Shown here: positions 21,731 through 37,256 of the stretch, in pieces | Layout: each line of letters begins with the position of its first letter | How positions within the stretch are numbered: the first letter of the stretch is position 1 | Source of the DNA: an uncultured Myxococcales bacterium | GTDB taxonomy: Bacteria > Desulfobacterota > Binatia > UBA1149 > SPBQ01 | Direction: 5' to 3' | Length of the DNA: 57,205 nt | Assembly: GCA_964478045.1 (NCBI GenBank) | Contig: CAYZHO010000003.1 | Coordinates: forward strand, 850 to 58,054 | Notes under the pieces: model-generated | What the model was told of the DNA's origin: nothing | The model's input: only the letters and a program-made list of their open reading frames with translations | The model's database searches: none | Made by a program: the position numbers and the translations under genes

Positions 21731-22249
21731 TCAGCGGCGCCACTTGTTCGGGTTGGCCAGCGCGACCAGGTGACCGAGCTCCGGAATGACCAGCTTCTCC
21801 ATCGCCAGCGCGCATCCTTCGGTCGATCCTGGCAGCGCAAAAACCACCGTGGTCCCGATAAGCCCCCCAATCGCTCTCGATAGCATCGCCGCAGAGCCAA
21901 TCTGCTGGTAACTGAGCCACCGGAACAGCTCGCCGAATCCTTCGAGGCGCTTGGTCAGGAGCTGCTCGAGCACGTCGTACGTGTTGTCGCGCGGGGAGAT
22001 CCCGGTCCCACCGGTCGTCACCACCGCGTCGATAGCGACGTCGTTGGCCAACGCCCGAAACGCGGCTGAGATTCGGTCCGGATCGTCCGCGATGATTCGG
22101 CTAGAGGCCACGTTGTGCCCAGCCTCCTCGAGCCGGCGTCTTATTTCGTCCCCGGAAGTGTCGGTCTCGGCGGTCCGGCTGTCGGAGATGGTCAATACGG
22201 CGCACGAAACGCCCTTGGCCTCAAACTGCCTGTGCTCTTCTACGCTCAC
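21731..22249 (-). CDS. moaB: molybdenum cofactor biosynthesis protein B (MoaB/MogA family)
   Basis: AVLTISDSR...D.SGD.I...L...GH.V and TTGGTGISPRD motifs. Confidence 0.9.
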   Translation of the reverse strand: MSVEEHRQFEAKGVSCAVLTISDSRTAETDTSGDEIRRRLEEAGHNVASSRIIADDPDRISAAFRALANDVAIDAVVTTGGTGISPRDNTYDVLEQLLTKRLEGFGELFRWLSYQQIGSAAMLSRAIGGLIGTTVVFALPGSTEGCALAMEKLVIPELGHLVALANPNKWRR

Positions 22250-26744: not shown

Positions 26745-28784
26745 ATGGAAGCGACCACGACGACCCTGATCGAACGTTTTCTCAAACCAAAGGCCGTTTC
26801 ATCGCGGAAGCTGGCGCGCTCTCCGGAAGGCCGCCTGCTGATGGCCGAAGAAAGTGCGCTCGACATGGACCGGATCCGAGATGCGGGCGTCACGGTAGCC
26901 GAGCTCGGGCGCCGGGTCCGAGTATACAACTCCGACATGACCAAGCAGATCGCCTCCTACATCATTCCGATCGAAATGACCGAGCTCGACGGGGAGGCAA
27001 TCGCTCAAGCGGTAGGCGCAAAGGTCCAGATCGGCCGGCTGCTCGCCGCCGGCGGGCTTTACCTCCGGCACAATCCGGGAATCCGCGAGATCGGGGTGAA
27101 CGACCGAGGGGACACGATCCTGCGCCTCGACCTCGCCACGGCCGAGGACCCAACCATCGGACCGGTTCTCAACTCCTACAACACGAGCCAAGCCGTTCTC
27201 GTCTCTCGGATCGTCGCGCGCATCGACAAGAAGACCCACGACCGCGACGTCAAGGAGGCGCGAGCCTGGCTCGAAGCGATGAATGTCCTGAGCGGCGGGA
27301 AGACGCTGCGCACGCGATTCTACAGCGCGGGGGTCGCCTGCGAGCACCGCGGCAACGTCCCGCAGCTCTACCGGACGGTCCAAGTCAACTTCTTCCAGAT
27401 GAACGACCCCCTTTCCTTGGAACTCGCATCGGCGCTCGAAGAGCGTTACCGCGCTCTCGACCGCAATGTGCCCATGGTGCGAGTGATCTCGGTCATGGGC
27501 ATTCCGCCCAACGAGCGGGCGTACAAGGAGTTCGTCGCCCAGCTCAAACAAAAGAAGCAAAACCCGATGTCGCTCGGCCTGCCGAGCCGCCTGCGAGACT
27601 CCCAGTTCTTCGATTCGGCGACCAAGTCCGTGGTGCCGGCGTGCTTCGTTTACGCTTGCCCACTCGAAGATATCGGGGATTCGATCTACATCATCACGAT
27701 CAACACGGACTACCACGGCGAAATCAAATGCCGCGGGGTCCACTCCGGCGTTGCAGCGGTCATGTCGATGGCGGAAGTCGTCTCCGCACACGCCGGTTCG
27801 GCAATCTTGAGCAGCAAAGGAGGCGCCACGGTCGTCATCGGCGGCGAGGGAGCAGGCAAATCAACCGCCGTAACGTTTTGGGCCGAGCGCAATCGCAGCG
27901 AGCGCCGAAACGAGCTGCGGCGGCGCTACCTGATCGACACGAACTCGGAAGAAAAAGCCGACGAAATCATGCAACGGGTCGGGATCCTCAATCAGGACGA
28001 CTGGCTCGAAATCGTGCCATCCGGCGAGGGACGCTGGGACGTGTGGCCGGCTGAGCGCCACTTCTACATGCGCAGCCGCGGCCTGCTCAGCCGAGACCTC
28101 GTCTTGTCGGAGAACGAACCGATCATCGAAAACGCGACCGCGGACTACGGGGCATCCGGCTCCCGCGAGGCCCTCGGGCGAACCACGCACGACTTCCCCG
28201 ACGAGCGGCTTTTCTACGATCCCGATTGGGACAACTTCTACGCCGACCGGGACGTCCATGCGATTTCGACGATCGTCCTCCTGGAACGCGACCCCGACCT
28301 CGACTACGTCGTGCGTCACGTCTCCCGGCAGGACGCCCTCGATTTTCTAATGCGCGGTCGCAACCCAGACGGCTCGTACCGGCCCTTCTACAACGATTAC
28401 ACCGACGTCTCGGCCTTGCTCATTTCGCAGGGCGTAGTCGGCGACCGGTTTATCGAGGCCTACAAGGCCGCGCGCCGGGGGGACGTCGCTGCTCTGATGA
28501 ACGGCGACGAAGCGCTCGGCCGTTTCGTACTGAACCGGCTGACCGTTCAGGTCGAAGTGTGGCAGCTTATTTTTTCGGACCTACCGGTCTTTGTCGTCAA
28601 CGCCGTGCACGGCTACGACCTCACGCAGGACGTAATTTGGATGGTTTCTGAGCACCCGGACTTTCTGCGGCGCGGACACGAAAAGTCGGTAGTGGAGTTC
28701 CGCGAGCTCATGGCGCGGCGTTACGGAGTGCTCTACGACGAAAGCGGCCGCTGGGCCGCCCTTGGAACCACGGAAGACTCTTAG
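26745..28784 (+). CDS. uncharacterised PEPCK/HprK-superfamily P-loop protein (divergent PEP carboxykinase-like fold)
   Basis: 679 aa. The C-terminal half shows, in ATP-PEPCK order: YHGEIKCRG (cf. YGGEMKKG), HAGSA (cf. HCSAN), Walker A VVIGGEGAGKST (cf. FFGLSGTGKTT), NQDDW (cf. GDDEH), then IENA and THDFP. The N-terminal ~330 aa are unrecognised. Comparison was by eye from memory of E. coli PckA. Confidence 0.5.
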   Translation: MEATTTTLIERFLKPKAVSSRKLARSPEGRLLMAEESALDMDRIRDAGVTVAELGRRVRVYNSDMTKQIASYIIPIEMTELDGEAIAQAVGAKVQIGRLLAAGGLYLRHNPGIREIGVNDRGDTILRLDLATAEDPTIGPVLNSYNTSQAVLVSRIVARIDKKTHDRDVKEARAWLEAMNVLSGGKTLRTRFYSAGVACEHRGNVPQLYRTVQVNFFQMNDPLSLELASALEERYRALDRNVPMVRVISVMGIPPNERAYKEFVAQLKQKKQNPMSLGLPSRLRDSQFFDSATKSVVPACFVYACPLEDIGDSIYIITINTDYHGEIKCRGVHSGVAAVMSMAEVVSAHAGSAILSSKGGATVVIGGEGAGKSTAVTFWAERNRSERRNELRRRYLIDTNSEEKADEIMQRVGILNQDDWLEIVPSGEGRWDVWPAERHFYMRSRGLLSRDLVLSENEPIIENATADYGASGSREALGRTTHDFPDERLFYDPDWDNFYADRDVHAISTIVLLERDPDLDYVVRHVSRQDALDFLMRGRNPDGSYRPFYNDYTDVSALLISQGVVGDRFIEAYKAARRGDVAALMNGDEALGRFVLNRLTVQVEVWQLIFSDLPVFVVNAVHGYDLTQDVIWMVSEHPDFLRRGHEKSVVEFRELMARRYGVLYDESGRWAALGTTEDS

Positions 28785-29851
28785 ACGCGATCCCGGTTTT
28801 CCCGAACAAGCGAAGAACCGGGCGCCCGAACGGGAGGAAGCTCCGCTCCGCTAGCCAAGAAAACGGCGCCACCCACCAGAGATGCTCCCACCACAACCCC
28901 CAGCCAGAGCAAGGCGAGCGCTACGGCACCCTCGCGGGCCACTCCCTGCAGGGCCGAAAGAAAGTAAACGTATCCCATCTCGCGAATGCCGAGCCCGGCC
29001 AGACTGACGGGAATCGCACTGAGAATGGTCACCAGCGGATGGCACAAGAAGTAGTACCGCCAGTCGACCGGCAGGCCGAGCCCTCGGCCCAGCAGGGCAA
29101 CCGCCCCGATCTGCAGCATATGAAATCCGACCGAAATCAGCGCGACTTCGAGCAGCAGGCGGCGGTCCTCCCACAGGCTCGCCAGCTCCACCTCGAGCAC
29201 CTCGCGCAGCGGGTGCCCGGGTCGCAGGCACAGCCGGGCGAGGCCAGGCACGGATAGCCATCCGCACAATGCGGCCACCCCGGCCAGCCCGGTGATCGCC
29301 GCCAGCCCCCGCGGGATGCCCATCCGCCCGAAGGCAAGCATGGCTCCCAGCGCCACCACGACCAGCATTACGAAGCCGATCACCCGGTCGAACACGACCG
29401 TATGGAGCGCGGCGGTACGGCGGTTCGTGGCGCCGCCGAGATAAAGGGAGCGCACGAGATCCCCGCCGAGGGTGCTAGGGCCGAAGAGGTTGAAGAACAT
29501 TCCCACGTAATAATAGAGGCAAACCTTCGCCTTTGATTCGCCAAAACCAGCGGCGCGCGCGATCAGGCCCCACCGCAGGGCGGTTATTACCTGCCCCGCC
29601 AGGTAGAGGAGAAAAGCCACGGCGAAGGTCCACTGCTCCACGTGCCGCAGTTCAGCCCACAAGCGTGCGGTGTCCAGCCGCGATATCACCAAACCCAAAG
29701 CCGCGGCCGAAACCGCCAGCTTTAGCCAGCGCCGCCTGCTTTTCCCGGAGACGGCCGGTCGAACGTTCGCTAGCCGCACGAGCGCTCGATAGCAGCCCAG
29801 GGTTCCTTGCACAATCGGTGCCGCTCGAAACACCTTGACAGCCCCGGACAA
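28781..29851 (-). CDS. flippase-like membrane protein (lysylphosphatidylglycerol-synthase TM region / UPF0104 family)
   Basis: RRWLKLAVSAAALGLVISRLD...L...L......F..A.LLYL.GQVITALRW, followed by multiple TM helices. The start is uncertain (ATG 29851 or GTG 29833). Confidence 0.7.
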   Translation of the reverse strand: MSGAVKVFRAAPIVQGTLGCYRALVRLANVRPAVSGKSRRRWLKLAVSAAALGLVISRLDTARLWAELRHVEQWTFAVAFLLYLAGQVITALRWGLIARAAGFGESKAKVCLYYYVGMFFNLFGPSTLGGDLVRSLYLGGATNRRTAALHTVVFDRVIGFVMLVVVALGAMLAFGRMGIPRGLAAITGLAGVAALCGWLSVPGLARLCLRPGHPLREVLEVELASLWEDRRLLLEVALISVGFHMLQIGAVALLGRGLGLPVDWRYYFLCHPLVTILSAIPVSLAGLGIREMGYVYFLSALQGVAREGAVALALLWLGVVVGASLVGGAVFLASGAELPPVRAPGSSLVRENRDRV

Positions 29852-29863
29852 CCTTCGGAGAAT
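29835..29863 (+). promoter_or_regulatory. candidate sigma70-type promoter (TTGACA-N17-GAGAAT) for the DsbA-like gene
   Basis: A perfect -35 TTGACA at 29835-29840, a 17-nt spacer, then GAGAAT at 29858-29863. It ends about 90 nt upstream of the GTG at 29954. Confidence 0.3.
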
Positions 29864-29953
29864 AACGAGGCGTGCGGTCCTGCGGGCCGCCGCTGGAAGC
29901 AGCGAACGAAGTCATAACCGCATCTGTCCTACGGGAAGGAAAGGGAGAGTGCA

Positions 29954-30712
29954 GTGAGAACGACCACCAAACAGGTTGGGGTTCTCGTCGCCATCTTGGC
30001 CGCGGGCCTCATGGCTTGCGTGGACCCGCAAGAGGTCAGCGACATCAAGGCCAAGGTTGACGAGATCCAAGCCCAGCAAAAGGACATCCTGGCCAAGCTC
30101 GACGCGCTCAGCAAAGGCCAGAAGCAGATTCTAGCCAGAGCTCCGGCAGCCGCCAGGAGGCCAACCGAGGACCCGAACAAGGTCTACGACATTCCGATCG
30201 GCAAGTCGTTCACGAAGGGACCGGCCGATGCGGCGGTGACGTTGATCGAGTTCGGGGACTTTCAATGACCGTTCTGCGCACAGGCCACCAGTTTGGTGGA
30301 CAAAATCCTCAAAGCATATCCGAACGACGTCCGGTTCGTCTATAAGAACTTCCCGCTGCCGTTCCACCGCAACGCGATGCCTGCAGCCAAAGCGGCGGTG
30401 GCAGCTGGCAAGCAAGGGAAGTTTTGGGAGATGTACGAAGCCCTCTTCAAGAACTACCGCAACCTGAGCGAGGACTTCTACATCAAGACGGCCAAGGACC
30501 TCGGGCTCGACGTCGAACAGTTCAAGAAAGACATGGAAGATCCGTCGACCCAGGAGTTCATCGCCGAGGAAATGAAGCAAGCCCGCGCGGCAAACGTGCG
30601 CGGAACACCGACCTTCTACATCAACGGCAAGAAGCCACCGGGACGCTCGTTCGAGCTCTACAAGCAGATCATCGACGACATCCTCAAGAAGAAGAAGGCA
30701 AAGGCGAGCTAG
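29954..30712 (+). CDS. DsbA-family thiol:disulfide oxidoreductase lipoprotein with in-frame TGA at the first redox Cys (candidate selenoprotein, UxxC)
   Basis: The two ORF-track pieces (29954-30268 and 30293-30712) are in the same frame and are separated only by the TGA at 30266-30268. Read-through gives TLIEFGDFQ-U-PFCAQ..VRFVYKNFPLPFHRNAMPAAKAAVAAGKQGKFWEMYEALF. This is the DFQCPFC Thioredoxin_4/DsbA pattern. The N-terminal lipobox is LMAC. Confidence 0.75.
30285..30299 (+). promoter_or_regulatory. putative bacterial SECIS-like hairpin
   Basis: CCACC (30285-30289), loop AGUUU, GGUGG (30295-30299). The apical loop starts 21 nt after the UGA and contains GU, and the spacing is comparable to the fdhF SECIS. 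The stem is short, so support is moderate. Confidence 0.4.
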
Positions 30713-30729: not shown

Positions 30730-30776
30730 CCGGCCGACAAAAAAGGCCGGGTGCCTCGAGGCGCCCGGCCTTTTTG
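30730..30776. terminator. bidirectional rho-independent terminator between convergent genes
   Basis: Long GC stem GGCCGGG(tGCC tcga GGCg)CCCGGCC at 30745-30770. It is flanked by AAAAAA (30739-30744) upstream and TTTTT (30771-30775) downstream. An additional CCGGCC/GGCCGG stem lies at 30730-30750. Confidence 0.8.
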
Positions 30777-30793: not shown

Positions 30794-31951
30794 TCATCGA
30801 CTCCCGGCTACCGGCACGGTCTCCCCGGCCTCCGGCTGCGGCTCCCGCGGGTCGCCCGCGCTAGATCCGGGGATATGATCAAGCCGCTGCCCGTCGACAA
30901 TGACGTAAGCCGGCCGGTAATCCGGCTTGCGGAACCACCAGAAAAACGCTCCACACAGCGTCAGGGCTTCGGCCGCCCAAAAGCCCAGCGCCGCAGACAT
31001 AATCGAATGCGACGTGCCGATGTGCCGCGCTAGCAAAAGCGTTTGGACGATCTCCCGAACGCCCTCGCCGGCGATGGTGAACGGCGAAATAACGGTCGCG
31101 AAGATCTGAATCGTCGACGCGAACGTCACCTGCCAGAACGTGGCTCCCACCGCACCGACGGCCAGCGCCGTAAAGAAGTACATCGCCGCGGTCGTAAAGT
31201 GCACGACGAAGCTCTGAAAGGCCGCGTTGATCAGGATGAGCTTGTGGTCGCTGTATGCGCTTGCCGCCTTCGAAACGCGCTCGACAAACCCCTCGATTTT
31301 GCCGCGCGCCGGAAGCGGCACGCTCGTGATCACCCACTGCACCAAAGCCGGCCGGAACAAGAGGGTGAAAAAAACAACGATGACTCCGGCCGCGAGCGGC
31401 ACGGTAACCAGTTCCACCCGAGCGGCATGCTCGCCCAGCACCGAGACGCCGAAGGGAAGCGCCACAAGGAACGTGATAAAAATGCCGACAATCCCCAGCA
31501 CCTTTTCGATCACCGTGGCGGCGGTAGCCTCGACGGTCTTTCCGCTGAATCTGGCAGCGTCGTACAGCTTGTAACCGTCGAGTCCCACGGTCGAGGGCAG
31601 GAAGGTTCCCAGGAACCGCCCGATTAGGAAGCTTCCGACAATGTGCCAAAACGGAAGCACGATTCCCTGGCCGCGCAAGAGCAGGGTCCAGCGGTACATG
31701 CTCGCCACGATGCCCACGATCTTGATCGAGGTAGCGAGCACGATGAACCGCCAGAAGACTCTCATGTCGATCTCGGGCAGGTGCGCTCGGATCGCGGCAA
31801 ACGTTGTGATGCGGCTGCCGTCCTCGGCCTCCACTTTGTGCGTGAGCAGGAGGTAGAAGGCCCCGACCGTCAAAACGGCCTTGACCGCGGTCGTCAGGAG
31901 CGAGCGAATGCGTGGCGGCAACCGGCGCCAGCTAGCAGTGATGCCGTTCAT
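30794..31951 (-). CDS. flippase-like membrane protein (lysylphosphatidylglycerol-synthase TM region / UPF0104 family), second copy
   Basis: The ATG at 31951 gives MNGITASWRRLPPRIRSLLTTAVKAVLTVGAFYLLL...MYRWTLLLRGQG...FLGTFLPSTVGLDGYKLYD, then multiple TM helices. The 555-aa ORF extension to 32461 is Arg/Ala-rich junk that overlaps the divergent gene and is rejected. Confidence 0.75.
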   Translation of the reverse strand: MNGITASWRRLPPRIRSLLTTAVKAVLTVGAFYLLLTHKVEAEDGSRITTFAAIRAHLPEIDMRVFWRFIVLATSIKIVGIVASMYRWTLLLRGQGIVLPFWHIVGSFLIGRFLGTFLPSTVGLDGYKLYDAARFSGKTVEATAATVIEKVLGIVGIFITFLVALPFGVSVLGEHAARVELVTVPLAAGVIVVFFTLLFRPALVQWVITSVPLPARGKIEGFVERVSKAASAYSDHKLILINAAFQSFVVHFTTAAMYFFTALAVGAVGATFWQVTFASTIQIFATVISPFTIAGEGVREIVQTLLLARHIGTSHSIMSAALGFWAAEALTLCGAFFWWFRKPDYRPAYVIVDGQRLDHIPGSSAGDPREPQPEAGETVPVAGSR

Positions 31952-33343: not shown

Positions 33344-34150
33344 GTGGCTTCCAGCGCCCCCTACTACCTGCCGATAGGCGACGAAAAGGAAATCTTCCGG
33401 GCCGCCTTTCACGAGTCCCTCCCGGTTCTGCTCAAGGGACCAACCGGCTGCGGTAAGACGCGGTTCGTCGAACACATGGCGGCCGAACTGTTGGCACCCA
33501 CCCCGGAGCGTCCGCACCCGTTGATTACCGTGGCCTGCAACGAAGATTTGACGGCGAGCGACTTAGTAGGACGCTACCTGATTCGCGGCGACGAAACCGT
33601 GTGGATCGACGGGCCACTGACGCAGGCGGTTCGCAGCGGCGCGATTTGCTACCTCGACGAAATCGTCGAAGCCCGAAAAGACACCATGGTGCTGATTCAC
33701 CCGCTGACCGATCACCGCCGTATCCTCCCTATTGATAAGCTCGGCCAGATCATCGAAGCGCATCCGGACTTCATGCTCGTTGTCTCCTACAATCCCGGCT
33801 ACCAATCGATTCTCAAGGACCTCAAGCCATCGACTCGCCAGCGTTTCGTCACCCTCGAGTTCGACTATGCTCCGCGTGACAAAGAAGCCGAGATTATCGC
33901 GCACGAAAGTGGCATCGACATGGACACGGCCCTTGATCTGGCACACGTCGGCGAGCGAGTCCGCGAACTCAAATCGAGCGGTTTGGAGGAAGGGGTTAGC
34001 GCTCGCCTCCTGATATATGCGGCGCAGCTCATCCGGCGCGGCATGTCCCCGCGCAAAGCGTGCGAGGCGACTATCGTACGAGGTCTTACCGACGATCCGC
34101 AAACCCAAGAAGCGATCTCGGAGCTCGTCGCTGCCATCTTTCGTGACTGA
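33344..34150 (+). CDS. CbbQ/NirQ/NorQ/GpvN-family MoxR-type AAA+ ATPase
   Basis: [16 protein letters not shown]...[20 protein letters not shown] (Walker A), [13 protein letters not shown] (Walker B), then [23 protein letters not shown] and [10 protein letters not shown]. The length of 268 aa is typical of CbbQ/NorQ. Confidence 0.88.
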
Positions 34151-37100
34151 CTGGCTGAGCAGCCACCACCTGAGGCGAACACCGGAAGGAGCCGCCGCCC
34201 TCGCGAAGCTCGAGCGGCTCGATCCAGCCGTTCGGCGCTGCGTGGTGGCGGCCGGGAACCGCTTGGCCAGCTACTCGGCCACGCTCGCCCAGCGATACCT
34301 GGTGGCGGCCGTCGGTGCAGCCGAGGCCTTGCGGGAGCGCTTCGAAGAATGGCAGCGCACCGTAGAAGAGCTGTTGGCGCAGGGAGGAAGCGGGCCCCAT
34401 CTCATCGAGGCATTTCTCGGCCTCGATCCGATCCAACTCTGGACGGCAGCCCCTGCGGCGCGTGCCGTATGGTTGGAAGCAAGCAAGGAGCTCGCCGGGC
34501 GTTCGCGCCGGATCGGTACTGCCTTTCTGCGCAGCACCGGCCACTTGCTTTCCACCGCACCGGCGGCGAGCCCTGCTCTGATCGAAGGTATCGGCGCAGC
34601 GGCCAACAAAATCGAGCAGTCGAGCGGCTGGCGCGGCGAGACGCTGGCTGTGGAATTCATCGAAACAGTGGCGCGCGCGGGCCCGGGCCTCAACGCCGGA
34701 AGCCTGGATCCGCTGGCTCGAATGGCGGTTGCGCTCGGTGGGTGCGGCCGCGTGCCCCACTGCCTGCGCGTGCCGCCAACCCTTGCCACCCTCGCCGCCG
34801 AGGAACAGCGACACACGGTCGAACTCTCCCAAAAGCAGGCCGAGCGCAATGCCCCTAAAGGTGAGGCTTTGCTCGCAGCCATCTCCGACGCTCTGAGCCG
34901 CTTGGACCGTCCTCTCAGACCGCTGCTCTTGTCGATAGCCGACCGCATTTGGGCCGAAGACGGGGCCGTCGCGACTTTTCGCGTCCTCCCAGCCGTGTGC
35001 CATGAACTGCCAGCTGAGGAGCTCGGCGAGCTACTGGCAATCGCCCGCGAAGTCGCTGGGGTGCTTCCCGCAGCGGCTATCGCGTATTTGCGCGCGATGG
35101 ACCGAGCGCGGGAGCGTTCGGATCTCCGGGGAATCCACCGCTGGGCGGAGGCGGGAATCAAAATCGCCTCTAGAAGCCCTGAGGCAGCCGTCGCTCACTT
35201 CTCCCTGCGCTCGCGTACTTCCCACAAGCTGCTGGCAGCGCGCACTGCGGCCGTGAGCTTCGAGGAAGTCGAGCCGGTTCTCGAGCGCCTCGGCCGCATG
35301 CTGGCACGGGGCCGCCTCCATTTGAACCCGGCGCCAGGAATCTGGCTGCGCCCACCCATCCTGCCAGGAGACGAGCGGGCGGTGGTTGTGCCAGAACGGG
35401 TCGACCTGTGGCCCGAATCCGAGGACAATCAGCGCTTCTATAAGTTGATCGTGGCGCACGCGGCTGGCCGCTGGGAATACGGAACCTACGGGCTGCGCAT
35501 TGCCGAGCTCAGGCGCCAGGGCATCCCGCTCCCTGATGCGACTCCGGCGGACGGAAACCTCGCCGCTTTTCTCGAAAGTTTTCCCAACCCGCTTTTGGCG
35601 GCCGGTCTGTTCGTTCTCCTCGATGGGATCCGGATAGACGCGGCGCTCGCGCGAGACTTTCCTGGACTTGCCCTCGAGGCAAGGCGGCTCGGCCGGTCGT
35701 ACGCCGAGCGCCTGCCGGCGCGAGCGAGCGAGCGCAGCGGCGAGCGCCTGCTCGAGGCGCTGTTCCTTGCCTCCGTTAGCGCGGGCGAAGTGCCGGCACT
35801 GGGCCGGCTGCGTCCGTATTTGGCGCTGGCCCGCCAGGCACTGGCCCGCTTGAGCCAGCCTGAGGCGTCGGTCGTCGACAGCGTACGGTGGACGGTTTCT
35901 CTGTACGGCCTGCTGGCGTGGGCAAGCGCGCGCGCCGACGACGGCAGCGAACCTCCTGCCATTGTCCAACTCGGGGGCGCCACGTTCGTCGACGAAGGGG
36001 CCGCAATCGGATCCCAGGCGCCCGGCGGACCGAGCGGTGAGGCACCCTCCGTCCTGCCCGACGGAGCTCCCAACCCCTCTTCGGTTCCCCTCGAAGTGGG
36101 GGACCCGCAGGAGGAACCCGGCGGCGGGCTACCGATTTCACCCGCCGAGCTCAAACGCTTGATCGAGCAGGGGCTCCAACTGCGCCTATCGCAAGCTGAG
36201 GGCCGCCAGTTGGCCGCCCTTGGTCTGTTCGTCACCGACTTGCTCGGCAAAATGCCGCGAGCGGCCGCAGAGCAACTCCGAGAAGCTTTAGAGCGCGGGG
36301 ACGAAACCGGATTGCGCGCCTGGATCGCACGCCAGCGCCAAGCCCGCTTTCACCTATACGATGAGTGGGACTACCGCATCGGCGACTATAGGCACCAGTG
36401 GTGCCGGGTCGAGGAACTCGAGGTCGACGGCGACGGAGGCCGCACCTTCCGCCAGATGCTAGCGGGCGCTGGGGACCTGATCGCGCGCCTCAAGCGGGAG
36501 TTCCTGTTGATGCGACCCGAGCAGTTCCGCCGCATACGGGGCATGGAAGACGGGCGGGAGTTCGACCTGAATGCCGTCGTCGATGCACGAGTGGACTTGC
36601 TGCGCCGCAAGACTCCTTCGGATCGGTTGTACGTTGACCGCAGGCGCGAAGAACGCGACGTCGCCACCCTGTTTCTGATCGATATGAGCGCCTCCACCGA
36701 CGAACCGCTGCCGGGCGGGAACCGGAGGGTCATTGATCTCACCAAGGAAACGCTCGTGGTCATGAGCTCCGTGCTCGAAGAGATCGGCGATGCCTACGCC
36801 ATCTACGGCTTTTCCGGTTACGGGCGGCTCGGCGTGGAAGTCTACCGAATCAAGTCGTTTCGAGAACGCCTCGGCCCCACCGTCCGCGGCCGGCTCGGCG
36901 CCATCGAGCCTAGGCGTTCGACTCGAATGGGAGCGGCCTTGCGCCACGCAGCGACAAAGTTCGCCGGCGTTTCGGCAAGATCGCGGCACGTCATTCTCAT
37001 CAGCGACGGCTTTCCCCAAGATTTCGATTACGGCGACGACCGGACCTCGAACGTCTACGGGATCCGCGACACCACAAAGGCGCTCGAGGAACTTGAGCGT

Positions 37101-37256
37101 AGCGGTGTTCGTACGTTCTGTATCACGATCGACCCGGCCGGGCACGATTACCTGCGCGAGATGTGTCCGGCGTCCCGCTATGCCGTGATCGACGACGTTG
37201 CGCGGTTGCCCGAGGAGCTCCCGCGCATCTACCGAACCGTCGTGGCTCGGGCGTGA
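34143..37256 (+). CDS. CbbO/NorD-like von Willebrand factor A protein with ~650-aa helical N-terminal extension
   Basis: The GTG at 34143 overlaps the cbbQ-like stop (GTGACTGA). The C-terminal region has [20 protein letters not shown], then a VWA domain with [17 protein letters not shown]...ISDGFPQD. A Pro/Gly/Glu-rich linker lies near 36000-36130. The total of 1037 aa is larger than the usual CbbO/NorD. Confidence 0.75.

Follow-up and report, generated by a model that had tools for sequence, protein, structure and literature searches.

An in-frame TGA that falls on the catalytic cysteine codon of a disulfide-exchange gene raises a simple question: is the gene broken, does it end there, or is the TGA read as selenocysteine (Sec)? 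We addressed this question for a DsbA-like gene in a stretch of 57,205 nucleotides from an uncultured Myxococcales bacterium, placed by GTDB in the Binatia (contig CAYZHO010000003.1; the whole stretch is called the window below). Positions 29954-30712 of the plus strand form a single reading frame, and translation gives TGA 30266-30268 as its sole internal stop. An earlier note on this DNA had proposed a UxxC selenoprotein likely to be mis-annotated as two open reading frames (ORFs). The candidate is supported by relatives with TGA at the same codon, by selection on both sides of it and by a hairpin specific to the TGA forms, and we conclude that the locus is very probably a functional selenoprotein gene, encoding a 252-residue exported DsbA-like lipoprotein in which TGA specifies Sec and the active site reads U-P-F-C.

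A DsbA-like domain with TGA at its nucleophilic cysteine

The two ORFs at this locus, 29954-30268 (GTG start, 104 amino acids (aa)) and 30293-30712, lie in a common frame. As noted earlier, the TGA is all that separates them; the read-through context is ...LIEFGDFQ-stop-PFCAQATSLV..., and downstream of the TGA 147 codons follow without a further stop or frameshift. A stop landing on exactly this codon by chance had been called improbable, and the counts bear this out. The pattern GAYTTYCARTGACCNTTYTGY (D-F-Q-TGA-P-F-C) occurs once in the window against 0.00 expected occurrences and, with gene junctions and antisense frames excluded, TGA 30266-30268 is the only coding-TGA-coding site in the 57 kb. 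Two other candidates of this type were rejected: the one at 21731 (minus strand) is a normal gene junction, and the one at 31215 (plus strand) is an antisense artefact.

Domain searches were run on the 252-aa product with Cys in place of the stop. Pfam Thioredoxin_4 (PF13462) matches residues 86-242 with an E-value of 7.8e-29 (101.4 bits; cut-off 23.2) and DSBA (PF01323) matches with 5.5e-26 (92 bits; cut-off 25.6), so that both models of the Thioredoxin_4/DsbA family named in the earlier note score above their gathering thresholds. In an alignment with 25 full-length homologues (56-70% identity), the stop aligns with the invariant first Cys of DFQ-C-PFC, in agreement with the claim that it replaces the nucleophilic Cys. 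The active site U105-P-F-C108 and the invariant V-R-G-T218-P219 cis-Pro loop are both present, and the window protein keeps the other invariant columns apart from S101G, H161Y, and D162E, which are discussed below. The lipoprotein signal that had been read from the translation holds as well: the N-terminus ends in L-M-A-C22, and the lipobox C22 is invariant across 26 homologues.

The structural comparisons give the same picture. Sequence matches in the PDB include 3gyk, Corynebacterium diphtheriae DsbA, and BdbD, with E-values from 6.6e-23 to 5e-12. Structure was assessed on the AlphaFold model of P0003, a 70%-identical Cys homologue, which has a DsbA-like thioredoxin-fold domain with an inserted helical domain at a predicted local distance difference test score (pLDDT) >90, and one helix over residues 25-62 modelled with low confidence (pLDDT approximately 55-62). 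A Foldseek search with this model gave the same 3 proteins as top PDB matches, at a target-normalised TM-score of approximately 0.82, and ScsC and BcfH as full-length alignments, with 230-267 columns that cover the whole model.

How widespread is TGA at this codon? A scan of one genome per species with the D-F-Q-TGA-P-F-C pattern returned at least 124 matches in at least 119 loci, and at least 110 of these are DsbA-like genes that show homology both before and after the TGA. Among the matches listed, TGA forms come from Chloroflexota, Acidobacteriota, Myxococcota, 'Deltaproteobacteria', and Candidatus Binatia metagenome-assembled genomes (MAGs). The proportion of the two forms is given by a metagenome scan that is blind to the codon; its query was limited to a C-terminal part of 136 residues that lies beyond both the motif and the hairpin. 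Its 73 scorable loci comprise 35 with TGA, 25 with TGC, and 13 with TGT; Sec-type and Cys-type codons (35 vs 38) thus both occur among orthologues. The 3 closest relatives, on independent metagenome contigs (L200, L201, and L202), all have TGA at the same codon and intact frames; in the read-through product, they share 90, 81, and 74% identity with the window. In a protein search with the post-TGA part, the closest of the best 120 database matches are fragments of 135-136 aa, with 87% and 83% identity. TGA and Cys forms are interspersed in a neighbour-joining tree, which is too crude for counting Sec/Cys switches.

The sequence beyond the TGA is under purifying selection. For the window and L200, the two sides of the TGA have the same synonymous divergence (dS), 0.78, and the ratio of nonsynonymous to synonymous divergence (dN/dS) is 0.08 upstream and 0.10 downstream; for twelve other TGA-form pairs, dN/dS downstream of the TGA ranges from 0.09 to 0.24. 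These low values indicate that the post-TGA part is translated and constrained, the window's own lineage included, so that neither a sequencing error nor a recent nonsense mutation can account for the TGA. A pseudogene, i.e., a Cys-type DsbA gene recently hit by a TGC/TGT-to-TGA change, possibly in a lineage that lost Sec decoding or never had it, is therefore very unlikely, even though a single base change converts a Cys codon to TGA, the window contains no Sec machinery, and 3 private substitutions are present at otherwise invariant positions. The TGA is common to relatives out to dS 0.78 and beyond, the 147 downstream codons are free of other lesions, close relatives lack the independent disruptions that decay would produce, and the window possesses the hairpin described below, which is specific to TGA forms. 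The probability of a sequencing or assembly error at 30266-30268 is practically negligible: the window does come from a metagenome-type assembly, but many independent assemblies, that of the 90%-identical L200 among them, have TGA here as well, and the accompanying hairpin is again present in the window.

A hairpin that accompanies the TGA

A selenocysteine insertion sequence (SECIS) of the bacterial type would be expected close behind a Sec codon, and the earlier note had pointed to a hairpin CCACC-AGUUU-GGUGG at 30285-30299 with its loop 21 nt past the UGA. We find the hairpin at these positions, with the loop beginning 21-22 nt past the UGA. When positions are counted with the U of UGA as 1, the window stem consists of six contiguous pairs, a G.A mismatch and a closing G-C, and the loop G and U are at +26/+27. 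The same layout holds for the TGA forms of the window group, in which positions 18-25 pair with 29-36 and loop G26 and U27 are invariant; the conserved hairpin of the TGA forms spans 15-33 nt after the UGA.

Comparison of orthologues separates the 2 forms clearly. In 23 distinct TGA-form sequences, 93.5% of the cells are paired, compared to 11-48% in slid-partner controls. By contrast, 23 Cys forms have 50% paired cells in the same columns, which is indistinguishable from shuffles. All 23 TGA forms pair position 21 with 33, 13 of them as G-C and 10 as C-G, and both positions are third in their codons. The best hairpin has a median energy of -10.5 kcal/mol in 33 TGA forms versus -4.2 in 34 Cys forms. 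At the protein level, the sole correlate of TGA is an S/G-L-V-D/E stretch, and this stretch encodes the hairpin. In the window, the hairpin loop is encoded by AGU-UUG, both of them minor codons (AGU accounts for 8.7% of Ser and UUG for 15% of Leu).

A covariance model (R1) built from 22 TGA forms, with the window left out, matches the window solely at 30266-30316, with 66.8 bits and an E-value of 1e-15; the next best score is 14.3 bits. TGA forms outside the training set score 65-72 bits and homologous Cys-form sites 16-46 bits, the latter range taking in the Cys paralogues that adjoin TGA forms in L202 and L124. Given that R1 also captures coding conservation, the contrast between TGA and Cys scores is the informative part.

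These data bear on 2 further explanations. The TGA could be a genuine stop. The upstream product would then be a lipoprotein stalk of 104 residues, and the C-terminal part would either remain untranslated or have its own start at TTG 30293; gene callers do give exactly such a division, into products of 104-107 aa and 135-136 aa. However, the domain comprises residues 86-242, and a product from TTG 30293 would be without the whole redox motif and the first thioredoxin-fold strands; in addition, the 24-nt gap between the called ORFs encodes a stretch, PFCAQATS, that is conserved in the same frame, and the hairpin covaries in TGA forms only. We consider a genuine stop highly improbable. Decoding of the UGA as something other than Sec, via a reassigned code or Sec-independent read-through (e.g., as Trp or Cys), is extremely unlikely. 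TGA is the ordinary stop in 20 of the 34 Pfam-supported genes of the window, with one coding-TGA-coding site only; the TGA at this site takes the place of the catalytic Cys, at which Sec/Cys pairs are the norm; and the hairpin position and G-U loop match those of a SelB-type SECIS.

Several observations nevertheless weigh against a selenoprotein gene in the window. The window hairpin is weaker than that of most relatives (-7.1 kcal/mol vs the median of -10.5), with the G.A mismatch at pair 19-35, and the 65-nt local fold is not unusually stable relative to shuffles (z = -1.26). Because of this z value, we dropped thermodynamic stability as evidence, and the significance of the hairpin rests on the comparison with relatives. 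Rfam gave no match at gathering thresholds for the whole window and none at E <= 10 for 30200-30400; either a model for SECIS elements of this type is missing from Rfam, or a site of this length is below what can be scored. In the protein, S101G, H161Y, and D162E affect otherwise invariant positions and are private to the window lineage. The 57 kb window contains no selA, selB, or selD (Pfam annotation of approximately 50 ORFs) and no tRNA-Sec, nor does it have any other tRNA or Rfam match, and the Sec-decoding capacity of the organism is something that we infer. Finally, no report on selenocysteine in Binatia-like bacteria was found within the literature searched.

With regard to the 3 substitutions, the window has Y-E-A at residues 161-163 (30434-30442). 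In Cys homologues and in the other TGA forms, the corresponding stretch reads WEMHD-, with H-D invariant and the next residue variable. At residue 101 (30254-30256), it has G instead of the S (F-S-DFQ) of Cys homologues and other TGA forms. L200, 90% identical to the window, retains both S and H-D. As other TGA forms keep S and H-D, the substitutions were ruled out as general correlates of Sec.

Two variations on the hairpin were seen among relatives. In a subgroup with the motif U-P-Y-C (L156, L159, L164, L174, L175, and L189), a different hairpin is located farther downstream; its loop AGGU starts 34 nt past the UGA, as in CCUCAAGC-AGGU-GCUUGAGG. This is a second SECIS solution inside one protein family. 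The Cys forms L196 (TGT) and L172 (TGC) retain most of the hairpin of TGA relatives. The remnant in L196 reads CTCCGGC-AGGT-GTCGGAG, and L172 scores 46 bits with R1; both have the look of genes that recently converted from Sec to Cys and still carry a fossil SECIS.

Genomic context and annotation

The features of the gene and its flanks are collected in Table 1. Terminator-like sites at 30739-30776 were detected on both strands; this G+C-rich hairpin lies between the convergent DsbA-like and LPG_synthase_TM genes and resembles a bidirectional intrinsic terminator.

Table 1. Features of the DsbA-like gene and its flanks, in window coordinates.
Feature	Position	Strand	Basis
Promoter-like TTGACA-17-GAGAAT	29835-29863		consensus match only
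Shine-Dalgarno-like AGGGAG, 6 nt ahead of the GTG start	29942..29947	+	read from sequence
Complete coding sequence of the probable 252-residue DsbA-like selenoprotein; GTG start, UGA = Sec105, TAG stop 30710-30712	29954..30712	+	frame, Pfam, relatives, dN/dS
Lipoprotein signal peptide, lipobox L-M-A-C, Cys22 codon 30017-30019	29954..30019	+	read from translation
Heptad-repeat helix, approximately residues 25-62, possible oligomerisation stalk	30026..30139	+	a/d hydrophobic spacing in VSDIKAKVDEIQAQQKDILAKLDAL
DsbA-like thioredoxin-fold catalytic domain, residues 86-242; cis-Pro loop T218-P219 at 30605-30610	30209..30679	+	Pfam, PDB sequence matches, fold search with homologue model
U-P-F-C redox motif; TGA 30266-30268 as probable Sec codon replacing the nucleophilic first Cys	30266..30277	+	alignment, relatives
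SECIS-type hairpin; stem 30283-30290/30294-30301, loop G-U-U 30291-30293	30283..30301	+	comparison with relatives, covariance model
Intrinsic-terminator-like hairpin between A-run and T-run, common to the convergent downstream gene	30739..30776	.	AAAAAA-GGCCGGGTGCC-TCGA-GGCGCCCGGCC-TTTTTG

The DsbA-like gene sits between two convergent or divergent genes for LPG_synthase_TM-type membrane proteins. Upstream is a gene for a 679-aa protein without family match in Pfam or NCBIfam (26745-28784, plus strand); L013 and L121 carry a syntenic counterpart with 68% identity. Downstream are TPR, CbbQ-type AAA, 1079-aa, and HhH-GPD genes; the 1079-aa protein (34017-37256, plus strand) likewise has no Pfam or NCBIfam match and follows the CbbQ/NorQ-type AAA ATPase, as it does in L201 and L202. 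The neighbourhood of LPG_synthase_TM, TPR, CbbQ, and 679-aa genes is common to the TGA forms L013, L041, L098, L120, L201, and L202 and to the Cys forms L121 and L124. For GroEL, the best matches that bear a name are to MAGs of a 'Deltaproteobacteria bacterium' (95%) and of 'Candidatus Binatia bacterium' (83-85%).

What occupies the syntenic locus varies. The TGA form stands alone in the window, L013, L041, L098, and L201; it is followed by a Cys paralogue in L202 and L124; and in L121 the Cys form is alone. In the tandem pairs, at 1174-2940 of L202 and approximately 1953-3378 of L124, the Cys paralogue comes directly after the TGA form (71-73% and 66-68% identical to the window domain), and each pair may consist of a Sec isoform and a Cys backup. 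Other relatives have more than one TGA-form unit. L002, L079, and L097 contain two TGA-form domains or genes in series. In L086 (Myxococcota MAG JBBTFH010000117.1), approximately 2.6 kb of the minus strand, which take in three matches to the pattern, are one open frame of approximately 880 codons that begins with a membrane anchor, MNMSKGTAFLGIIIAF, and continues with a tandem series of four DsbA-like domains. An in-frame TGA is present at U-P-[FY]-C in every one of them; the predicted product would be a protein with four selenocysteines.

A tRNA-Sec gene was observed close to one TGA-form DsbA-like gene, in the unrelated Anaerolineae MAG contig DUEZ01000062.1 (L089). It has the anticodon TCA, is located at 2019-2114, and lies approximately 5 kb from the DsbA-like gene; none of the adjoining ORFs is a sel gene.

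The consequences of the TGA for annotation are evident from the databases. Of the 120 best matches to the post-TGA part, approximately 44 are no more than fragments, 131-153 aa long (P0241-P0284) and often named 'protein-disulfide isomerase'. In the close relatives L200-L202, the gene calls are split into genes of 104-107 aa and 135-136 aa. We checked four fragment matches at the DNA level, and all four carry TGA, with the split visible in three (L200, L202, and L120). The mis-annotation as two ORFs that had been foreseen for the window is thus common among its relatives: the family is systematically mis-annotated, and gene callers still routinely split it.

Proposed function and comparison with known systems

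By analogy with the standard bacterial SelB/SECIS pathway, UGA 30266-30268 would be read as selenocysteine, with a SelB-type factor carrying Sec-tRNA(Sec) presumably binding the hairpin 15-33 nt downstream and delivering its cargo to the ribosome. The product would then be exported and lipidated at Cys22, and the mature protein in the cell envelope would react with substrate cysteines by disulfide or selenenylsulfide exchange. Compared with cysteine, selenocysteine has a lower pKa and is both a better nucleophile and a better leaving group, so that exchange should be faster than with Cys. The U-P-F-C enzyme would cycle through a selenenylsulfide, a bond that favours fast exchange and a lower redox potential in general selenium chemistry. 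As to the cellular role, the stalk and the Sec together lean towards an oligomeric isomerase/reductase (ScsC-like) rather than a pure oxidase (DsbA/BdbD-like).

A broader proposal can be put forward tentatively, and we regard it as possible but rather doubtful. The gene could represent a clade of its own, very abundant in Binatia-like bacteria, of DsbA-like selenolipoproteins with a coiled-coil anchor. The clade would act as an oligomeric, selenium-dependent disulfide isomerase/reductase of the envelope; some genomes would keep it beside a Cys paralogue as backup, and others, including that of the window, would have the TGA form alone. If this were true, envelope protein folding would be selenium-dependent wherever the TGA form stands alone, and in the tandem arrangement Sec would mark the high-activity isoform and the Cys paralogue the selenium-independent backup.

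These results do not overturn current understanding; they are of value mainly for correcting annotation and for drawing attention to Sec use in a Binatia-like lineage. The gene implies Sec decoding in a Binatia-like organism, and its lipid anchor would place a selenoenzyme in the cell envelope. The sole curated (seleno)lipoprotein model misses the window clade, and the combined signature of TGA and hairpin would allow correct gene calls. Moreover, with TGA and Cys forms about equally frequent and some genomes carrying both in tandem, the family offers a natural system in which the benefit of Sec relative to Cys for disulfide exchange can be studied.

The Sargasso Sea selenoproteome included DsbA-like UxxC selenoproteins, with nine sequences and a SECIS figure (Zhang, Fomenko and Gladyshev 2005, PMC1088965), and others were found in the genomes of Anaeromyxobacter, Desulfovibrio, and Desulfotomaculum (PMC1794560); a 2026 review lists 'DsbA-like protein form 1, PF01323, UxxC' (PMC13188914). 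These published examples agree with the statement in the earlier note that such proteins had already been predicted in surveys. The window protein is like them in its DSBA-family domain and in having Sec for the first Cys of CxxC, and further common points are widespread Cys homologues and a downstream SECIS hairpin with G in the apical loop. With the published examples of the 2005 family (AACY01178397, NIP15863.1), the likeness was drawn via the shared PF01323 domain and UxxC motif only. We take COG2761 to be the FrnE-type cytoplasmic DsbA-like group. It is the group to which the Sargasso Sea family was assigned (PMC1088965). Unlike that family, the window protein matches Thioredoxin_4 best and has a lipoprotein signal and a helical stalk.

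The hairpin can be compared with the SECIS of Escherichia coli fdhF, the sequence of which we verified in 5419 of 5426 E. coli genomes. Both hairpins follow directly after the UGA. The fdhF element folds with the loop GGUC at +22 to +25 and G-U at +23/+24, whereas many window relatives have GGUCU at +25 to +29, or AGUYU, with the invariant G-U at +26/+27, which is one codon farther from the UGA. In further contrast to fdhF, no bulged U is evident and the stem sequence is unrelated.

Among proteins of known structure, the Cys-type S. pomeroyi 3gyk, B. subtilis BdbD (3eu3), and C. diphtheriae DsbA/TsdA (4pwp, 7unn) share the catalytic domain, CPxC, and T-P cis-Pro loop, but they have Cys at the nucleophilic position and no N-terminal coiled-coil stalk. 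The oligomeric isomerases/reductases ScsC and BcfH (P. mirabilis 4xvw, C. crescentus 7rgv, and Salmonella BcfH 7jve) have the same succession of N-terminal helix, linker, and DsbA-like domain; however, they are only 17-22% identical and are Cys proteins, and the stalk in the homologue model is of low confidence.

The nearest curated family is NCBIfam NF041057, 'Rcas_1661 family thioredoxin-like (seleno)lipoprotein' (equivalog), which is the best NCBIfam match, with residues 13-242 aligned to positions 3-246 of 247 in the model. The protein that it describes is similar in kind: a lipoprotein carrying a thioredoxin-like domain, some members being selenoproteins. The window protein scores 97.5 bits against a cut-off of 190 and is therefore a relative of this family that falls outside it. 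The cut-off is likewise missed by seven other TGA forms, from several phyla, which score 96-159 bits, the Chloroflexota being nearest. DsbA-like UxxC selenoproteins have thus been known since 2005, and the window gene belongs to a clade that is beyond the reach of the curated models.

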